From assembly GCF_000026545.1 (NCBI RefSeq), contig NC_011601.1: a DNA stretch of 64,000 bases; one strand, 5' to 3'. The first letter of the stretch is position 1, and each line of letters starts with the position of its first letter. The position numbers were made by a program, and so were the translations under genes. Under the pieces are notes generated by a model, which had not been told where the DNA came from, ran no database searches, and saw only the letters and a list, made by a program, of their open reading frames with translations. The DNA comes from Escherichia coli O127:H6 str. E2348/69 (GTDB lineage: Bacteria; Pseudomonadota; Gammaproteobacteria; Enterobacterales; Enterobacteriaceae). Shown one piece after another: positions 15,656 to 64,000 of this stretch.

Positions 15656-17155
15656 TTAAATCAACTGCAATGCTATCCAGTACAACCCACCAGAAAGAAA
15701 AATCGCCGCCGGTAAAGTAAATACCCACGCCATCAGGATGCTGGTTACCGTTTTACGCTGTAACCCACCGCCGTCCACCACCATCGTCCCTGCTACTGCA
15801 GACGAGAGTACGTGTGTTGTGGAGACGGGCATCCCAATATAACTGGCAAGGCCGATAGACACTGCCGCCGTCATCTGTGCCGCCATGCCTTGCGCATACG
15901 TCATGCCGCGCTTACCAATCTTCTCACCGATGGTCATCGCTACACGACGCCAGCCAATCATGGTGCCGATGCCGAGCGCCAGTGCTACCGCCATGATGAT
16001 CCATACCGGTGCGTACTCAATGGTGCTTAACATATCGCTGCGCAGTTTTTTCAGCAGGTTCTGGTCTTCTTTACTGACGCCTGGCAGTTTCGCCAGCTTC
16101 GCGGAGGTATCAGAGATGCACAGCATAATGCGGCGCAGCTGGCTGCGCTGACTCACGCTTAACGGCTCGTAACTTTCCATATTGCCTGGCAGCATCGTTT
16201 TAACGCGCGCAATCGCATCAAAGGTATTTGCCGGATGACAGTGAAACTCTGTTACTTGCGTGCCATCAGTCGATGTCGCAGGCAATGGAGGTTCCATCGT
16301 AATCAACTTCTGCGGCAGTTCAGGATGCTGTTGCAGGTAGTGTTCGAAGTTGGTGACGGCATCGCGGGTACGGGTAATTTCATAGCCGGACGCATTCATA
16401 TTGACGACAAACCCGGCGGGAGCAATCCCCACCAGCACCAGCATCACCAGACCAATTCCTTTCTGCCCGTCGTTCGCGCCGTGCGAAAACGCCACGCCCG
16501 CAGCGGAAACAATGAGGGCAATACGCGTCCAGAATGGCGGCTTACGTTTGCCTTTTTTCTTTTGGCGATCTTCCGGAATGCGGTGAATACGGTCACGCTT
16601 TTTCGTCCCGCTCCAGTAGCGACGCAGCAGAAAAATCAGCCCCCCCGCAATCACCAGCCCCACGATGGGGGAGACAATGAGTGAAGAGAAAATCTTGGTG
16701 ACTTCGCGCAGGTTTAACGCATCCATCACCGACGAACCATTTAACAGCGCGTTGGTTAAACCGATGCCGATAATCGCACCAATCAAAGTGTGCGAACTGG
16801 AGGCCGGTAAACCAAAGAACCACGTTCCCAGATTCCAGATAATCGCCGCCAGCAGCATGGAAAAGACCATCGCCAGACCGTGAGTTGACCCCATATTCAG
16901 CAACAAATCGGTTGGCAACATATGGACGATGGCATAGGCAACGCTAAGCCCGCCAAGCAATACGCCAAAAAAGTTAAAAAATGCCGCCATGACTACAGCA
17001 AGCTGTGGTTGCATGGCACGGGTATAAATAACGGTTGCCACCGCATTCGCTGTGTCATGAAAACCATTGATTGCTTCATAGAACAACACAAATGCCAGAG
17101 CAAGTAATAACAAAAGCCCCGTATATATATCAAGGCCAACAAATAAATTTAGCAT
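15656..17155 (-). CDS. pitB: Low-affinity inorganic phosphate transporter PitB
   Basis: 499-aa polytopic ORF recognised as E. coli PitB (PiT family). Confidence 0.9.
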
Positions 17156-17445: not shown

Positions 17446-19305
17446 TTACTCTTTTACCACAATTAACGGCTCAATATCACTCTCTTTTTTGATGACCAGT
17501 GATTCATCACCGCGTAAGCAAGTCCCACCGTAGTTGCCGCCAACGGTGAAGGTACATACCTGAATGTATTTACCGTCCACTTTCGGCAAACACCACAGTT
17601 GCTGATAGATGTTTTTCTGCTCGGCAAATTTACCGCTGGTTTTGTCCAGCACCTCTTCATGATGGCTGACGAGGTCGATGTTACTGCCACAGCGACCGGC
17701 GATCGGTTTAACGGCATAACCGGTTTTCACCAGCTCATCATTCACGGTGAAGTCAGTATCCAACAGATAACGATGGTGCGGGAACAGAGACCAGAGGATC
17801 GGCAGAATCGCTTTGTTGCCGGGGATCACTGTCCACAGAGGTTCAAAGACCAGCACTTCCGGGCGCAGCAATACGTCGATAAGACGCACTTCATTTTGCG
17901 GATGACCGGTACGGATCGGCACCGCAGCAAACTCACGGTCGCTAACTTCACGAATCTGATCAAACGCGGTTTCCCACGCCCAGGTTTTCCACACGCAGTT
18001 AACCAGTCGCCCTTCCCCATCAATCAGTTGCCCGGCAGCATCCCAGCCCAGTTCATCCAGCCCGCGCAAGATACGCGTTTCAAAGCCCGCCTGGTGCAGC
18101 GCCTGCTCCATAAACTGCGCGTGATAGTTTTCCTCGATATCTTTGTCCTGCATGATATGGACAAACGGACGTGCACGACTGTGTTTCCAGGCACCAGCCA
18201 GTTCGTTAATCAGCCCTTCCGCCGGATTGAAGCCGTTGCCTTTATAGCCCTGCTCCGCCCAACGTTCGAGGATCAAGCCAGCTTCGGTATGACAGGAGGC
18301 GGAGTCGGCGTTGTATTCGTAGACCTTCAGGCCACGTTCGTCCATACAGAAATCCATACGACCGGTGATCATATGGTGACGGCGACGCTGCCAGGAGAGA
18401 CGCAAACGTGGCCAGAGGATTTTTGGGATGTCGAACAGCGCCAGCAGGTTGTCATCTTTCAGCACCTTGTCGGTTGCGTGAAGATACATCAGGTGCAGTT
18501 CGTTGGTGGCTTTAATCAGCTCCTGCTCTGCGCTCTCGGTAATGGTGTAGTAATGATACGGATCCTGATTGATCACCTGACCGTTGGCCTGCACATAGGC
18601 GTTTTGTAGCGGATCTTTTTCATCCAGCCATTTACCGTCAAACTGGCCTTTGTTTTCCAGACGCGCTCCGCTGATTTTCAGCAGCTCGCCTGCAATTTCC
18701 GGCTGCGGTAAGCTGTATTCAGTATCTTCCGTCTGGATCATCCAGCCCAGAATAGTGGTGTCATCGAAGGTGTCTTTCAGGGTATAGCAGCCGTTTTCGA
18801 CCACCATCTCCAGCTCGCGTGTCCACTGTTGCCCTTGCGGCAACGGGGAATGAATCACGTTCTGTTCCGCAATACGGACTTTGTTGCCATGCAATTGGGT
18901 AATGATGGCGACATGGCCAGTGTCTTTAAATTCACCGCCTTTATCCCAGATAAGAAGCGCCCCCGCTACCGGTGCACGCGGCGAACCGTTAGGAAATGCC
19001 TGCAATGGCAGGATGTTGTCATTGACCACTTCACGCAAGAAGCGCAGTGAGAAAATCTCCCATGCCATACCCACGTCAGTGAAGACTACACCGTAGTTCA
19101 GAAAGAGAAAACGGCGAGCAAATTCAACGCATTGCCATTTGTGGCCCATATATTCATCGTCGATATAGCTACGGAATACGGCGTCATCTTCGTATTCCTG
19201 CGGATCGAGAGAACTGTAATCTGAAGAGTAGATTGCTACCCCACCTGGGGCGTAGCCCAATAATGTCCCGAACGGGGCATCCTGGCTGGTCGTTCCTTTG
19301 CTCAT
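17446..19305 (-). CDS. gss: Bifunctional glutathionylspermidine synthetase/amidase
   Basis: ORF 17446..19308; start placed at the second Met (MSKGTTSQDAPFGTLLGYAPGG...), giving the 619-aa Gss remembered for E. coli. Confidence 0.9.
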   Translation of the reverse strand: MSKGTTSQDAPFGTLLGYAPGGVAIYSSDYSSLDPQEYEDDAVFRSYIDDEYMGHKWQCVEFARRFLFLNYGVVFTDVGMAWEIFSLRFLREVVNDNILPLQAFPNGSPRAPVAGALLIWDKGGEFKDTGHVAIITQLHGNKVRIAEQNVIHSPLPQGQQWTRELEMVVENGCYTLKDTFDDTTILGWMIQTEDTEYSLPQPEIAGELLKISGARLENKGQFDGKWLDEKDPLQNAYVQANGQVINQDPYHYYTITESAEQELIKATNELHLMYLHATDKVLKDDNLLALFDIPKILWPRLRLSWQRRRHHMITGRMDFCMDERGLKVYEYNADSASCHTEAGLILERWAEQGYKGNGFNPAEGLINELAGAWKHSRARPFVHIMQDKDIEENYHAQFMEQALHQAGFETRILRGLDELGWDAAGQLIDGEGRLVNCVWKTWAWETAFDQIREVSDREFAAVPIRTGHPQNEVRLIDVLLRPEVLVFEPLWTVIPGNKAILPILWSLFPHHRYLLDTDFTVNDELVKTGYAVKPIAGRCGSNIDLVSHHEEVLDKTSGKFAEQKNIYQQLWCLPKVDGKYIQVCTFTVGGNYGGTCLRGDESLVIKKESDIEPLIVVKE

Positions 19306-59254: not shown

Positions 59255-60600
59255 AATTTACCCAACGTCTTAGTCTGCGAGTCAGGCTGACGCTAATCTT
59301 TTTAATTCTGGCCTCAGTGACCTGGCTGCTTTCCAGCTTTGTCGCCTGGAAACAAACAACGGATAACGTCGATGAGTTGTTCGACACCCAACTGATGCTG
59401 TTTGCCAAGCGGTTAAGTACGCTCGATCTCAACGAAATCAATGCGGCAGATCGCATGGCACAGACGCCAAATAAATTAAAACACGGTCATGTTGATGACG
59501 ATGCGCTGACCTTTGCCATCTTTACCCACGACGGCAGAATGGTCCTTAACGATGGCGATAACGGAGAAGATATTCCCTATAGCTATCAACGGGAAGGTTT
59601 TGCTAACGGGCAACTGGTCGGTGAAGACGATCCCTGGCGTTTTGTCTGGATGACCTCACCTGATGGCAAATATCGCATCGTTGTTGGTCAGGAATGGGAA
59701 TACCGCGAAGACATGGCGCTGGCGATTGTTGCCAGGCAATTGATCCCGTGGCTTGTCGCACTGCCGATTATGTTAATCATCATGATGGTACTACTGGGTC
59801 GTGAACTCGCGCCGCTGAACAAACTGGCGCTGGCACTACGTATGCGTGACCCTGACTCGGAAAAACCACTAAACGCGACGGGCGTACCCAGCGAAGTGCG
59901 TCCACTGGTTGAGTCGTTGAATCAACTGTTCGCCCGCACACATGCGATGATGGTTCGTGAACGACGCTTTACCTCCGACGCAGCTCACGAACTACGTAGC
60001 CCGTTAACGGCGCTGAAAGTGCAAACCGAAGTTGCGCAGCTCTCTGACGATGATCAGCAGGCGCGGAAAAAAGCGCTGCTTCAATTACATTCCGGAATCG
60101 ATCGCGCTACTCGTCTGGTTGATCAACTGCTCACGCTATCGCGGCTGGACTCACTGGATAACCTTCAGGACGTCGCGGAGATCCCGCTTGAAGATCTCCT
60201 GCAATCGTCGGTGATGGATATTTACCACACGGCGCAGCAGGCGAAAATTGACGTGCGACTGACACTCAATGCCCACGGCATCAAACGTACCGGACAACCG
60301 CTATTGCTAAGTTTGTTGGTGCGAAATTTGCTGGATAACGCCGTGCGCTACAGTCCACAGGGCAGCGTGGTGGACGTCACGCTGAATGCCGATAATTTCA
60401 TCGTGAGGGATAACGGCCCCGGTGTGACACCAGAGGCACTGGCGAGAATTGGCGAACGCTTCTATCGCCCACCCGGACAAACCGCTACCGGCAGTGGACT
60501 TGGGCTATCAATTGTCCAGCGAATCGCCAAGCTGCATGGCATGAATGTTGAGTTTGGGAATGCGGAACAAGGTGGATTTGAGACGAAGGTAAGCTGGTAA
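59251..60600 (+). CDS. qseC: Sensor histidine kinase QseC
   Basis: 449-aa ORF; H-box ([12 protein letters not shown]) and ATPase G-boxes; start overlaps the qseB stop. Confidence 0.95.
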
Positions 60601-60709
60601 GGGTAAGATTTTTGCTAAATTCGCAAAAGACTTTGCACATTTTGCTAATTTCACCGTACCGCTCTGTGACGTACTATAGTCGGCAAACGTCTCACCTTGA
60701 GGTTAAAAA

Positions 60710-61291
60710 ATGAGCAACATCCTGATTATCAACGGCGCGAAAAAATTCGCCCACTCCAATGGTCAACTGAACGACACCCTGACCGAAGTCGCGGATGGCA
60801 CGTTGCGCGACCTCGGGCATGATGTCCGCATCGTTCGCGCCGACAGCGACTACGATGTCAAAGCGGAAGTACAAAACTTTCTCTGGGCTGATGTGGTGAT
60901 CTGGCAGATGCCAGGCTGGTGGATGGGCGCGCCGTGGACAGTGAAAAAATACATTGATGATGTATTCACCGAAGGTCACGGCACGCTGTACGCCAGCGAT
61001 GGTCGTACCCGCAAAGATCCGTCGAAAAAATACGGCTCCGGCGGCCTGGTACAGGGCAAAAAATATATGCTTTCTCTGACCTGGAACGCACCAATGGAAG
61101 CCTTCACCGAAAAAGATCAGTTCTTCCACGGCGTTGGCGTTGACGGTGTGTATCTGCCGTTCCATAAAGCAAACCAATTCCTTGGCATGGAACCGCTGCC
61201 GACATTTATCGCTAATGACGTGATAAAAATGCCTGATGTTCCCCGCTATACTGAAGAATATCGCAAGCATCTTGTGGAAATTTTTGGTTAA
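60710..61291 (+). CDS. mdaB: NADPH:quinone oxidoreductase MdaB
   Basis: 193-aa ORF recognised as MdaB (flavodoxin-like fold). Confidence 0.95.
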   Translation: MSNILIINGAKKFAHSNGQLNDTLTEVADGTLRDLGHDVRIVRADSDYDVKAEVQNFLWADVVIWQMPGWWMGAPWTVKKYIDDVFTEGHGTLYASDGRTRKDPSKKYGSGGLVQGKKYMLSLTWNAPMEAFTEKDQFFHGVGVDGVYLPFHKANQFLGMEPLPTFIANDVIKMPDVPRYTEEYRKHLVEIFG

Positions 61292-61321: not shown

Positions 61322-61636
61322 ATGCTTACCGTAATCGCAGAAATCCGTACTCGTCCTGGTCAACATCACCGTCAGGCGGTATTGGATCAGTTTGCTAAAA
61401 TCGTTCCAACCGTACTGAAAGAAGAAGGTTGCCACGGCTATGCGCCAATGGTGGATTGCGCTGCTGGCGTGAGTTTCCAGTCTATGGCACCGGATTCTAT
61501 CGTGATGATTGAGCAGTGGGAAAGCATCGCGCATCTTGAAGCGCATCTGCAAACCCCGCACATGAAGGCGTACAGCGAAGCCGTAAAAGGTGACGTGCTG
61601 GAGATGAATATTCGTATCCTGCAGCCGGGGCTTTGA
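61322..61636 (+). CDS. ygiN: Quinol monooxygenase YgiN (ABM domain)
   Basis: 104-aa ORF recognised as YgiN. Confidence 0.9.
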   Translation: MLTVIAEIRTRPGQHHRQAVLDQFAKIVPTVLKEEGCHGYAPMVDCAAGVSFQSMAPDSIVMIEQWESIAHLEAHLQTPHMKAYSEAVKGDVLEMNIRILQPGL

Positions 61637-61680
61637 CATTTCTAAAAAGAGGCCGGTGCTGCTACCGGTCTCAGCCCAGA

Positions 61681-62568
61681 TTAGCCATTCTTTCTTCCCG
61701 TTTTCAGTCCTCGATGGAAATCGTTAATTCGCTTAATGGTTTTAACCGCACGCTGCGGCACTGCGGAAGCTACCGACCAGACAATCATTTCCAGACACAA
61801 CAATACCGTACCATGTAGCGGCGTTTTCCCTTTTTCATCCCCGCGCGGAACATGAATCACGATACTGGCGTCTTTGCTAAAACGTGAATCCAGCGCGTTT
61901 GTCAGCAAAATAACAGGGATCCCCAGCCGCCTCGCCTCACGAAGCGTTGTCAGCCCTTCCCGGTGCGCAGATTTTTGCGCCATCATGATCAGAACATCGC
62001 CACGTTGAAGCGCGATCAGTTGCTCGGCAAGGCCAATACCCGTACGGTTTAGTGCCGTGGCAGGCAAACCTATGCGGTTGAATAGTCGTGCGGTATAGTC
62101 CGCCAGGATACCCGAAGCGCCAATGCCAAAAATAGCGACTTGCCGTGCCTGCACCAACAACGCTACAGCTTGCGCAAGCGCGTGGCGGTTTTCAGGCTCT
62201 GACAGGACATTACAGGTATACAAATGCCCTTCAAGAACAAAGTCGATTGCGGTGTTAACATCGCTCGTCAAGTTACTCACCGTCGTAGACATCTTTTCGC
62301 TGGAACTAAGGGCTGGACCAAGCCACTGTTCCAGAGTGCGTTTCAGATCACGCAGCCCGGCAAACCCCAGGGCCTGTATAGCCCTGATAACTGTGGCATC
62401 GGAAGTGTTCAACGTGGCCGCAATTTCCATCGCCGTTTGCTCGAGTACCACTTCACGATGCTCATTAATGTAGCTGGCGACAGCTCTTAACCCAGGCGTT
62501 AACTGACTCGCGCGAGTGCGAAAACGCTCACCAAAAATATCAACCCGCGCTTTATCTTTCTGGATCAT
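61681..62568 (-). CDS. RpiR/MurR-family transcriptional regulator (HTH + SIS domain)
   Basis: 295-aa ORF with N-terminal HTH_6-type region and C-terminal sugar-isomerase (SIS)-like phosphosugar-binding domain; accessory relative to K-12 as I remember it. Confidence 0.7.
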   Translation of the reverse strand: MIQKDKARVDIFGERFRTRASQLTPGLRAVASYINEHREVVLEQTAMEIAATLNTSDATVIRAIQALGFAGLRDLKRTLEQWLGPALSSSEKMSTTVSNLTSDVNTAIDFVLEGHLYTCNVLSEPENRHALAQAVALLVQARQVAIFGIGASGILADYTARLFNRIGLPATALNRTGIGLAEQLIALQRGDVLIMMAQKSAHREGLTTLREARRLGIPVILLTNALDSRFSKDASIVIHVPRGDEKGKTPLHGTVLLCLEMIVWSVASAVPQRAVKTIKRINDFHRGLKTGRKNG

Positions 62569-63512
62569 TTAGCCTCCGGTAGAGGTCGCCCTGCAATTTG
62601 TGATTGTATCTGCGCAGCCATCAGCCCCAGTGATGCAAAGGAGTTAGAAATTGCCTCTTCACGAGAAATCAGCACATAACGCCCGGAACGACAGGCAGTC
62701 AGAAACTGACACCATCCCGGCATGACTTTTTCCATTGCTGCCAGCTCATCCTGAGGTTTACCACCGGTGTCACCGCGCCAGGTTGCAAAAACAAAATCGG
62801 CATCCAGTTCAGGTAAACGCTCCGCGCTCACATCCATTCGCCCACCTTCAGGAATGCTCTCAATCAGCGGCGGAAAACGAAAACCAGCATCGCGTAATAC
62901 CCGCCCCAGCGAATGATAGCTATGCATCACATTAATTTTTCCCTGGTTTGCCTGAATCACCGATACCGTTATTTTTTGGCTGTCCAGCGTCGCCTTCAGC
63001 GCATTGATTTGTGCCTGATAGCGGCGTTCAAGTATCGCCAGCTGCGACTGCGTTCCTGTAAGTTCTGCCAGCTTGCGATAGATTTCTGGCGCGCCCCCTT
63101 TGAGATGATCAATGCTCACCGTGGGCGCAATTTTTTCAAGTTGTTCAATGGGCGTATTACGGGTCGGTTCTGTGATGATCAAGTCAGGCTTTGCCGCCAC
63201 AATCGCTTCAATATCAATATCAGCGGTACCAATAAAGGCGATCGATGAATTATCAAAGTCGACACCTGTCAATAACGCGCCAGATCGAATGAAATGGCTA
63301 CCGTCAGGCCGAGTTCGCCCGTGGCTGGCGACAGGAGGTACACCGAGCTCAATCAGAGGAATAGTGATATCAAGATCGTGTAAAGAGACAATTCTCTTTG
63401 GATGAGCAGGAACAGTGACTTTGCGCCCTAAATCATCAGTAAATACCTGAACAGGTTCTGTTGCACGGGAAAAAAATGACAACAGTATCAGCAGAGAAAA
63501 AAATAAACGCAT
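62565..63512 (-). CDS. ABC transporter periplasmic binding protein (class III, iron-siderophore/hemin/B12 type)
   Basis: Start placed at MRLFFSLLILLSFFSRA (signal peptide); overall resemblance to FecB/BtuF-type binding proteins; adjacent to a FecCD-type permease. Confidence 0.65.
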   Translation of the reverse strand: MRLFFSLLILLSFFSRATEPVQVFTDDLGRKVTVPAHPKRIVSLHDLDITIPLIELGVPPVASHGRTRPDGSHFIRSGALLTGVDFDNSSIAFIGTADIDIEAIVAAKPDLIITEPTRNTPIEQLEKIAPTVSIDHLKGGAPEIYRKLAELTGTQSQLAILERRYQAQINALKATLDSQKITVSVIQANQGKINVMHSYHSLGRVLRDAGFRFPPLIESIPEGGRMDVSAERLPELDADFVFATWRGDTGGKPQDELAAMEKVMPGWCQFLTACRSGRYVLISREEAISNSFASLGLMAAQIQSQIAGRPLPEAK

Positions 63513-63522
63513 ATAACTCCCG

Positions 63523-64000
63523 TTAAAAACTGTTCCTGCGCTGCCAGAGCAGTAGCAAAAAAAATGGTCCACCAATCAGTGAGATAATGATTCCGGCAGG
63601 CAGTTGCAAAGGCAAAAAAGCCAAACGACCAATGCTATCCGCCAGAATAACTAACAACGCCCCCGATACCGCGCTCCCCAGCAGTAATGTCGTCTGCCCG
63701 CCACGTAGAATAAAACGTGATATATGGGGTGCTATCAATCCGACAAAACCGATGTTACCAACACACGAAACGCAGACGGCTGTCAGGATTATGGGTGCGG
63801 CGACACGTAACAACGCCAGACGAGAACTATTCACCCCTAACCCGGTTGCAACCTGATGACCAAGCAGAGCGATATCCGCCGTCCTGGCGGTGAACAGCAA
63901 TAAAAGAGCGGCTGGCAACATCCAACAGGCTGAAATACCGACTAACATCCAGTTAGCTGCATGCAGGCTTCCCGATAACCACATCAATGCAGTTTGTACA
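63523..64000 (-). CDS. ABC transporter permease, FecCD family (C-terminal part; gene continues beyond window end)
   Basis: Hydrophobic ORF with FecCD/BtuC-like C-terminal segment (…GGPFFLLLLWQRR); N-terminus lies outside the window. Confidence 0.65.
   Translation of the reverse strand, partial: VQTALMWLSGSLHAANWMLVGISACWMLPAALLLLFTARTADIALLGHQVATGLGVNSSRLALLRVAAPIILTAVCVSCVGNIGFVGLIAPHISRFILRGGQTTLLLGSAVSGALLVILADSIGRLAFLPLQLPAGIIISLIGGPFFLLLLWQRRNSF

Follow-up and report, generated by a model that had tools for sequence, protein, structure and literature searches.

An RpiR-type regulator beside a siderophore-type transporter between ygiN and parE of Escherichia coli E2348/69: the fit locus and its conservation in Enterobacterales

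Introduction

Why should a regulator of the RpiR family, equipped with a SIS domain, be encoded next to a binding-protein-dependent importer of the siderophore type, and why at a place where parE is expected to follow ygiN? This question is raised by the right-hand end (positions 61681–64000) of a stretch of 64,000 nucleotides from Escherichia coli O127:H6 strain E2348/69 (contig NC_011601.1), which we refer to as the window. The original prediction, made from the sequence of the window, regarded the pairing of a phosphosugar-sensing regulator with such a transporter as unusual and as a possible sign that a sugar-conjugated chelate is taken up. Here, we address the identity of the unit, the nature of its transporter, the ligand site of its regulator, and the conservation of the arrangement in other bacteria.

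Results

Gene content at the end of the window

The open reading frames and their Pfam matches confirmed a minus-strand unit consisting of an RpiR/SIS regulator, a periplasmic binding protein and a FecCD-type permease that runs off the window end. We name these genes fitR, fitE and fitD for the reasons given in the following section. The left flank is formed by ygiN (61322–61636, plus strand), according to its ORF, the RefSeq annotation and a comparison with K-12 a conserved core gene outside the fit system. Next to it, a terminator scan identified, as a consensus match only, a terminator-like hairpin and T-run on the minus strand (CCGGTAGCAGCACCGG plus CCTCTTTTTA; 61653–61668, or 14069–14054 in the extended record described below), which likely marks both the point where the fitBCDE-R transcript stops and the left border of the inserted segment.

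The last gene of the fitBCDE-R operon, fitR (61681–62568, minus strand), encodes a protein of 295 amino acids of the RpiR/MurR family (RefSeq WP_000614943.1), which matches the Pfam domains HTH_6 with 39.6 bits (cutoff 28.3) and SIS with 52.1 bits (cutoff 25). Its ATG, preceded at a distance of 8 nt by a GGAGG sequence, overlaps the stop codon of fitE (ATGA; …GAG GCT AAA TGA / ATG ATC CAG…). This overlap of the two reading frames by 4 nt indicates that fitE and fitR are co-transcribed and probably translationally coupled. The fitE gene (62565–63512, minus strand) encodes a class (group) III, or cluster A, binding protein of 315 amino acids with an N-terminal signal peptide and a Peripla_BP_2 domain (PF01497; 66.9 bits, cutoff 27.5). 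A longer fitE reading frame with a TTG start extends up to 63575 and differs from the start annotated in RefSeq. Of fitD, the window contains the 3′ part (63523–64000, minus strand), that is, the C-terminal 158 residues of a FecCD-type permease, aligned to positions 160–310 of the 311 positions of the FecCD profile (136.1 bits).

For the extension past position 64000, we used the E2348/69 record NZ_CP059840.2, which is 100% identical to the window (window position = record position + 47599). Full-length fitD spans positions 15924–16961 of this record, corresponding to 63523–64560 of the window. The gene order is ygiN, then on the minus strand fitR, fitE, fitD and fitC (the latter two encoding FecCD permeases) and fitB (ABC ATPase), followed by fitA on the plus strand and parE. 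The extension thus recovered the ATPase together with a second FecCD permease and a divergent TonB-dependent receptor. RefSeq annotation, Pfam and NCBIfam agree on this six-gene architecture, in which fitA is divergent from fitB-C-D-E-R across an AT-rich intergenic region of 373 bp (31% GC). No Rfam family was found in the fit locus.

The unit corresponds to the published fit system

A locus composed of fitA, fitBCDE and fitR has been described in the septicaemic strain i484 (Ouyang and Isaacson, Open Microbiol J 2008; PMC2593036), and fitA is in use as an ExPEC/AIEC marker (PMC9409007). We therefore mapped the fit primers listed in Table 2 of PMC2593036 onto the window and the extended record. 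All 18 primers (fitA to fitE, fitR and promoter) could be placed with 0–1 mismatch in the expected gene and orientation. Within the window, the fitR1, fitR2 and qPCR fitR primers lie at 61684–61701, 62494–62511, 62546–62568, 62378–62401 and 62442–62465, the qPCR fitE primers at 62894–62917 and 62942–62965, and the qPCR fitD primers at 63809–63828 and 63849–63868. The "fit promoter" primer pair brackets the fitA–fitB intergenic region (18753–19111 of the extended record; 359-bp amplicon). The loci of i484 and E2348/69 are alike in gene content, gene order, FitE protein and divergent promoter amplicon; the sole difference is the strain, with 0–1 mismatch per primer.

Two solved structures, PDB entries 3BE5 and 3BE6, match FitE residues 19–315 from end to end (E=2e-195) with two substitutions. 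The authors of the FitE structure reportedly deduced an anionic siderophore from a pocket lined by arginines. Entry 3BE6 is named Ec-FitE in PMC10553834, and a passage of PMC3080849 cites Shi et al. 2009 for the FitE structure. Gene order, primer matches and the FitE structure match identify the three genes at the window end as fitR, fitE and fitD, the last of them truncated to its 3′ part. Positions 61681–64000 (minus strand) are thus almost certainly part of the fit system by which pathogenic E. coli take up iron siderophores, working by the published mechanism to which an inferred operator can be added. The defining paper of the system is reportedly that of Ouyang and Isaacson in Infection and Immunity in 2006, the transport phenotype being taken here from papers that cite it. 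The sequence, the genetics and part of the structure of the fit locus were published between 2006 and 2009, and the novelty implied by the original prediction is not sustained, given the matching primers and the identity of FitE with 3BE5/3BE6.

The fit segment is accessory in E. coli

In K-12, parE begins 47 nt past ygiN; the genes found here in its place are thus a genuine difference in gene order, as predicted. The fit segment comprises ∼7.3 kb with a GC content of 49.2%, compared with 50.3% and 50.8% in its flanks, and carries its own terminators at each end, which replace the single hairpin of K-12. Among 5426 complete E. coli genomes, fit is present in 1870, while 3268 show the K-12-type ygiN–parE junction and roughly 288 have neither of the two. 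The copies are at least 99% identical in 1143 genomes; in a further 728, among them O157:H7, identity is 95–99%. Hence, fit is an accessory and not a core locus, in agreement with the expectation that the unit would not be shared by all E. coli. Neither the annotation nor a repeat search revealed an integrase, a tRNA or flanking direct repeats around the segment.

Transport components of the siderophore type

The best solved relatives of FitE are the siderophore binders YfiY, FhuD, SirA and FepB, and also CeuE. Together with the PF01497 match, these relatives place the binding protein in class III, as had been proposed, and not in a sugar-binding class. FitA, a plug and β-barrel receptor, passes the generic model for TonB-dependent siderophore receptors (TIGR01783) with 375.7 bits at a cutoff of 223.5; among proteins of solved structure, FoxA, FetA, FhuA and FhuE are its best matches. 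None of the NCBIfam equivalog models for FhuA, FhuE, FoxA, Fiu, FecA and FepA reached its cutoff with FitA, and no substrate could be assigned from them: the best equivalog score was 236.7 against a cutoff of 884 (PRK14050), and the FhuA and FhuE models gave 230 against 803 and 161 against 666, respectively. In NCBIfam, FitB, FitC and FitD come closest to models of the FecABCDE and FhuBCD systems, with all scores far below the equivalog cutoffs (for example, 284.6 bits for FitB with the FecE model at a cutoff of 375). According to a passage of PMC5907654, the Fit substrate is not enterobactin. A literature search for the Fit substrate or for more recent work on FitA found none.

The SIS domain of FitR carries an atypical loop

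FitR combines an N-terminal HTH_6 with a C-terminal SIS domain, the architecture of the MurR/RpiR family, both above the Pfam cutoffs; the solved structures that match it best are 8K3B, 8JU9 and 4IVN. We aligned FitR with eight orthologues (69–88% identity) from Salmonella, Lelliottia, Kosakonia, Citrobacter, Sodalis, Erwinia, a record labelled Pseudomonas cerasi and Raoultella, and with the E. coli K-12 paralogues MurR, AlsR and YebK. SIS domains contain a phosphate loop with the motif [ST]-x-[ST]-G-x-[KST], which contacts the phosphate. In the alignment, this loop follows an invariant G-D-V strand and reads SYSGSK in MurR, THSGRT in AlsR and SHTGRT in YebK; 8K3B has SQSGRS at the same register according to a phmmer alignment. 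The canonical motif is absent from FitR and its eight orthologues down to 69% identity, which show [AG]-Q-K-S-[AP]-H instead. A second loop, G-x-G-x-S, is retained in FitR, with G148, G150 and S152 invariant in the alignment.

Judged by these predicted features, FitR is a bona fide RpiR-family member in its architecture that lacks one hallmark of phosphosugar binding. That the replacement is itself conserved suggests a ligand site which has been maintained but differs from the canonical one, and without the phosphate-loop motif, family membership does not justify the term "phosphosugar-sensing". No FitR effector is reported in PMC2593036. A kinase, glycosidase, PTS or sugar-phosphate enzyme is not conserved beside the cassette in the four genera compared and in the Pantoea variant described below.

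A candidate FitR operator at both divergent promoters

Overexpression of FitR lowers the activity of fitA and fitB reporters about threefold, and a fitR knockout de-represses them, with repression restored by complementation; moreover, His-tagged FitR shifts fitA–fitB intergenic DNA, and unlabelled probe competes (PMC2593036). The same study describes FitR as an autorepressor acting independently of Fur, reports iron/Fur repression of the fit promoters, and found the fitR mutant still induced by iron chelation (PMC2593036). This last result indicates that Fur and FitR are independent repressors.

To this picture we add a comparison of five fitA–fitB intergenic regions from loci that were chosen by FitR protein identity, independently of any DNA motif. 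Within otherwise unalignable AT-rich DNA, two islands are invariant: TTTACTACTACA-N9-TTGAATGATTCTCAATTACAT near fitA and AAAAATAA..CTCATTC-N∼25-ATGTAGTAGTCAAG near fitB. The ACTACTACA/TGTAGTAGT elements within them form an inverted pair, with a spacing of 150 nt in E. coli and of about 150–210 bp overall. In E2348/69, the ACTACTACA elements are located at 18830–18842 and 18993–19005 of the extended record. The underlying 13-mer TT(G/T)ACTACTACAT occurs twice in 30 kb, both times at the fit promoters, with 0.03 sites expected by chance, and it was not found elsewhere in the window. On the sense strand of each gene, the element begins with TTGACT or TTTACT, a hexamer resembling a –35 box, and continues with ACTACAT; the Fur-like boxes cover the –10 region or are positioned shortly downstream of it. 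In a survey of one genome per species, 81 unique sequences have ACTACTACA upstream of a Fur-like 18-mer, always at a distance of exactly 21 nt; the 18-mer itself was the bait of the survey and is thus conserved in this set by construction. The inverted ATGTAGTAGTCAAG is found near fitB in 67 unique sequences.

Based on these observations, we propose TT(G/T)ACTACTACAT as a candidate FitR operator at both divergent promoters and the flanking boxes, with the candidates TTGAATGATTCTCAATTAC and AAAAATAAAACTCATTCTC, as putative Fur sites. A search for the 19-mer Fur box with up to three mismatches gave no match in 30 kb, and the best Fur-like boxes agree with the consensus at 12–13 of 19 positions, a score that shuffled sequence reaches as well. 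Fur control is therefore based on the literature and on cross-species conservation. A σ70 consensus scan called neither of the divergent fit promoters. Given this result and the weak Fur score, our reading of promoters and operators is derived from conservation.

The regulator-transporter cassette is conserved in Enterobacterales

FitR orthologue loci were retrieved by exact protein look-up. Kosakonia, Raoultella and Sodalis all carry the cassette, a receptor gene divergent from genes for an ATPase, two permeases, a binding protein and the regulator, each time in an unrelated neighbourhood. The record labelled Pseudomonas cerasi shows an insertion between fitE and fitR, with one gene for a PepSY_TM protein and two for PBP_like_2 proteins. 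In the species survey, 80 loci were found among the matches listed; about 68 are from Enterobacterales, and all of these with a sufficiently long flank show fit-like genes. Overall, the regulator-transporter cassette is conserved in about 68–75 Enterobacterales species. Pantoea shows a second architecture, in which fitR (65–68% identity) is divergent from the gene for a different TonB receptor (36–37% identity with FitA), and a Peripla_BP_2 gene lies behind this receptor gene.

Because the cassette is kept across genera in unrelated neighbourhoods, the combination of an RpiR-type regulator with TonB-dependent uptake is a stable arrangement rather than an accident. The predicted pairing of such a regulator with a siderophore-type transporter is real, and the authors who characterized FitR themselves called it a "novel regulator" (PMC2593036). 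The linkage is not specific to the E2348/69 window.

Discussion

How firmly the locus can be read as a siderophore uptake system depends on how other explanations fare. According to the original prediction, the importer would serve a sugar-conjugated chelate or another sugar-bearing substrate and be induced once the SIS domain of FitR senses the derived phosphosugar. The SIS domain does score above the Pfam cutoff and keeps its G-x-G-x-S loop. Nevertheless, the FitR orthologues have an invariant A/G-Q-K-S-A/P-H in place of the phosphate-loop motif, sugar-handling genes are not conserved beside the cassette in four genera and Pantoea, and every transport component is of the siderophore type. 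We consider this explanation very unlikely, and the sugar-chelate idea was not upheld in view of the atypical FitR loop and the lack of sugar-metabolism genes next to the cassette. The import of a non-siderophore substrate such as free divalent metals (Fe2+, Co2+ or Cd2+), heme or a corrinoid is highly improbable. A passage of PMC12928451 links the fit operon to the uptake of Fe2+, Co2+ and Cd2+, in conflict with a siderophore role, and heme and B12 importers also occur among FecCD/Peripla_BP_2 systems. However, FitA passes the siderophore receptor model and has FoxA, FetA, FhuA and FhuE as solved relatives, the nearest solved relatives of FitE (YfiY, FhuD, SirA and FepB) bind siderophores, the heme and B12 models score far lower, and fit expression is under iron/Fur control (PMC2593036).

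It could also be argued that fit is a recently acquired mobile genomic island and that the pairing of regulator and transporter is an accident of its assembly, since the locus is found in merely about one-third of E. coli genomes and the cassette occupies differing chromosomal contexts across other genera. The mobile-island reading was rejected because flanking repeats and mobility genes are absent; neither an integrase nor a tRNA is present, and the GC content of 49.2% compares with 50–51% in the flanks. An accidental pairing is further contradicted by the 4-nt overlap of the fitE and fitR frames, by the maintenance of the pairing as a unit in about 68–75 Enterobacterales species, by the second architecture, in which fitR is divergent from another TonB receptor and a Peripla_BP_2 gene and the promoter motif is retained, and by the published regulation of fit by FitR (PMC2593036). 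We regard it as extremely improbable.

We therefore return to the interpretation of fit as an iron-siderophore uptake system under dual control. Under iron limitation, Fur repression is lifted and both divergent promoters become active. The transport path can be laid out from knowledge of the protein families: FitA would mediate the TonB-powered uptake of a ferric chelate across the outer membrane, FitE would capture the chelate in the periplasm, and FitCD/FitB, a type II importer similar to BtuCD/FecCDE, would deliver it to the cytoplasm. FitR, produced from the fitBCDE-R transcript, binds the fitA–fitB intergenic DNA and represses both promoters independently of Fur and iron, probably by contacting the conserved TT(G/T)ACTACTACAT element, which at each promoter overlaps with the –35 region. 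This repression is probably relieved when the atypical SIS domain of FitR binds a small molecule. It is possible, if rather doubtful, that FitR, with its remodelled phosphate loop, responds not to a phosphosugar but to the chelate brought in by Fit, to the same compound without iron or to one of its breakdown products, while bound to two inverted TT(G/T)ACTACTACAT operators, which may be looped. If true, Fit would be a substrate-derepressed xenosiderophore system, a form of regulation that has so far not been described among iron uptake systems, and identification of the FitR ligand would also reveal the Fit substrate.

Fit shares a TonB-dependent receptor, a Peripla_BP_2 protein, FecCD permeases and an ATPase with the ferric dicitrate system FecABCDE and the ferric hydroxamate system FhuA/FhuBCD of K-12. 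In contrast to Fec, which depends on FecIR sigma/anti-sigma signalling, and Fhu, which lacks a specific regulator, Fit has an RpiR-type repressor. The HTH_6 and SIS domains of FitR are shared with MurR, AlsR, YebK/HexR and NanR of Vibrio vulnificus (4IVN) at 18–20% identity. Like MurR/RpiR regulators with phosphosugar effectors, FitR is a repressor at a divergent promoter, but it differs from MurR, AlsR and YebK in its A-Q-K-S-A-H loop and in its target, an iron-uptake operon instead of sugar catabolism. FoxR of Salmonella, as presented in a passage of PMC9804782, likewise is a dedicated one-component regulator next to a TonB-dependent receptor, acting on top of Fur control; FoxR is AraC-like, whereas FitR is a repressor from another protein family and of opposite sign.

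The observation that started this study was correct but ordinary, and its discovery value is small. What is new here is the recognition of the regulator-transporter pairing as a conserved Enterobacterales cassette, together with the inverted TT(G/T)ACTACTACAT motif; the FitR operator and Fur sites that we propose were not located in PMC2593036. The residual interest lies in the substrate of Fit and the signal of FitR, questions that were raised nearly 20 years ago. For both, there are now handles: a candidate operator that can be mutated and footprinted, the unusual loop of the SIS domain, which may guide ligand screens, and a list of species carrying the cassette as a resource for comparative work.

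Candidate operator and receptor variants

The operator of the RpiR-family repressor FitR was not pinpointed in the 2008 study of Ouyang and Isaacson (PMC2593036). In the extended E2348/69 record, past the window end, we identified an inverted pair of TT(G/T)ACTACTACAT elements with one copy for each of the divergent fit promoters: the first on the minus strand at 18830-18842 (window-equivalent 66429-66441) and the second on the plus strand at 18993-19005 (66592-66604). These elements show no variation across about 75 Enterobacterales species and keep a constant spacing of 21 nt to the Fur-like 18-mer that served as search bait. Judged by sequence, this pair is a candidate FitR operator.

The same promoter block, TTTACTACTACA plus the 18-mer, is also present in a variant fitR locus of Pantoea agglomerans (L042, 10137-14736), an architecture that recurs at nine further loci (L022, L023, L031, L043, L048, L052, L066, L075 and L089). 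Here, a FitR orthologue (65-68% identity) is encoded divergently from another TonB-dependent receptor, only 36-37% identical to FitA, and a Peripla_BP_2 gene; an exact inverted copy of TTTACTACTACA was not found upstream in this variant. Shimwellia pseudoproteus (L020) has the 18-mer and orthologues of FitB-E and FitR (56-74% identity), but its receptor shares just 37% identity with FitA, and an exact ACTACTACA is missing at -21 relative to the 18-mer. In this locus the receptor may have been exchanged and the operator may have diverged.

Distribution and additional genes

Among complete E. coli genomes, fit is present in 1870 and the K-12-type ygiN-parE junction (coverage of at least 80%) in 3268, while about 288 show neither; in these, the junction may have diverged or may hold a different insertion. 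Close to the fit segment, ygiZ is another small case of a gene present in one genome and absent from the other: in K-12 this gene, whose product is an inner-membrane protein with a DUF2645 domain, separates qseC from mdaB (L002, 1880-2212), whereas ygiZ is absent from the window, where the gap between these two genes is only about 110 nt (60600-60710).

PepSY_TM proteins include ferric-siderophore reductases. One such protein and two PBP_like_2 proteins are encoded by three additional genes between fitE and fitR in a fit-like cassette (L003, 6007-9004) of a record labelled Pseudomonas cerasi (GCA_977069525.1). The cassette is Enterobacterales-like, which raises the possibility of a wrong species label or of a horizontal transfer. 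In Sodalis sp., a siderophore-interacting-protein type reductase gene (FAD_binding_9 + SIP; L006, 11548-12342) is located about 1.6 kb 3′ of fitR, whereas the E. coli fit segment lacks one.

Substrate and effector

The Fit substrate has been given as "unknown" (PMC5907654). A 2026 genome paper links the operon to Fe2+, Co2+ and Cd2+ uptake (PMC12928451), in conflict with both that statement and the siderophore-type fit components; this attribution is probably a citation slip.

FitR itself (window 61681-62568) carries an atypical SIS loop, MMAQKSAHRE (residues ~205-212). MurR, AlsR and YebK share the phosphate-loop motif [ST]-x-[ST]-G-x-[KT], whereas FitR has A-Q-K-S-A-H instead, unvaried in orthologues down to 69% identity. 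Because the motif is replaced by this invariant sequence, the loop suggests that FitR may respond to a non-canonical effector.
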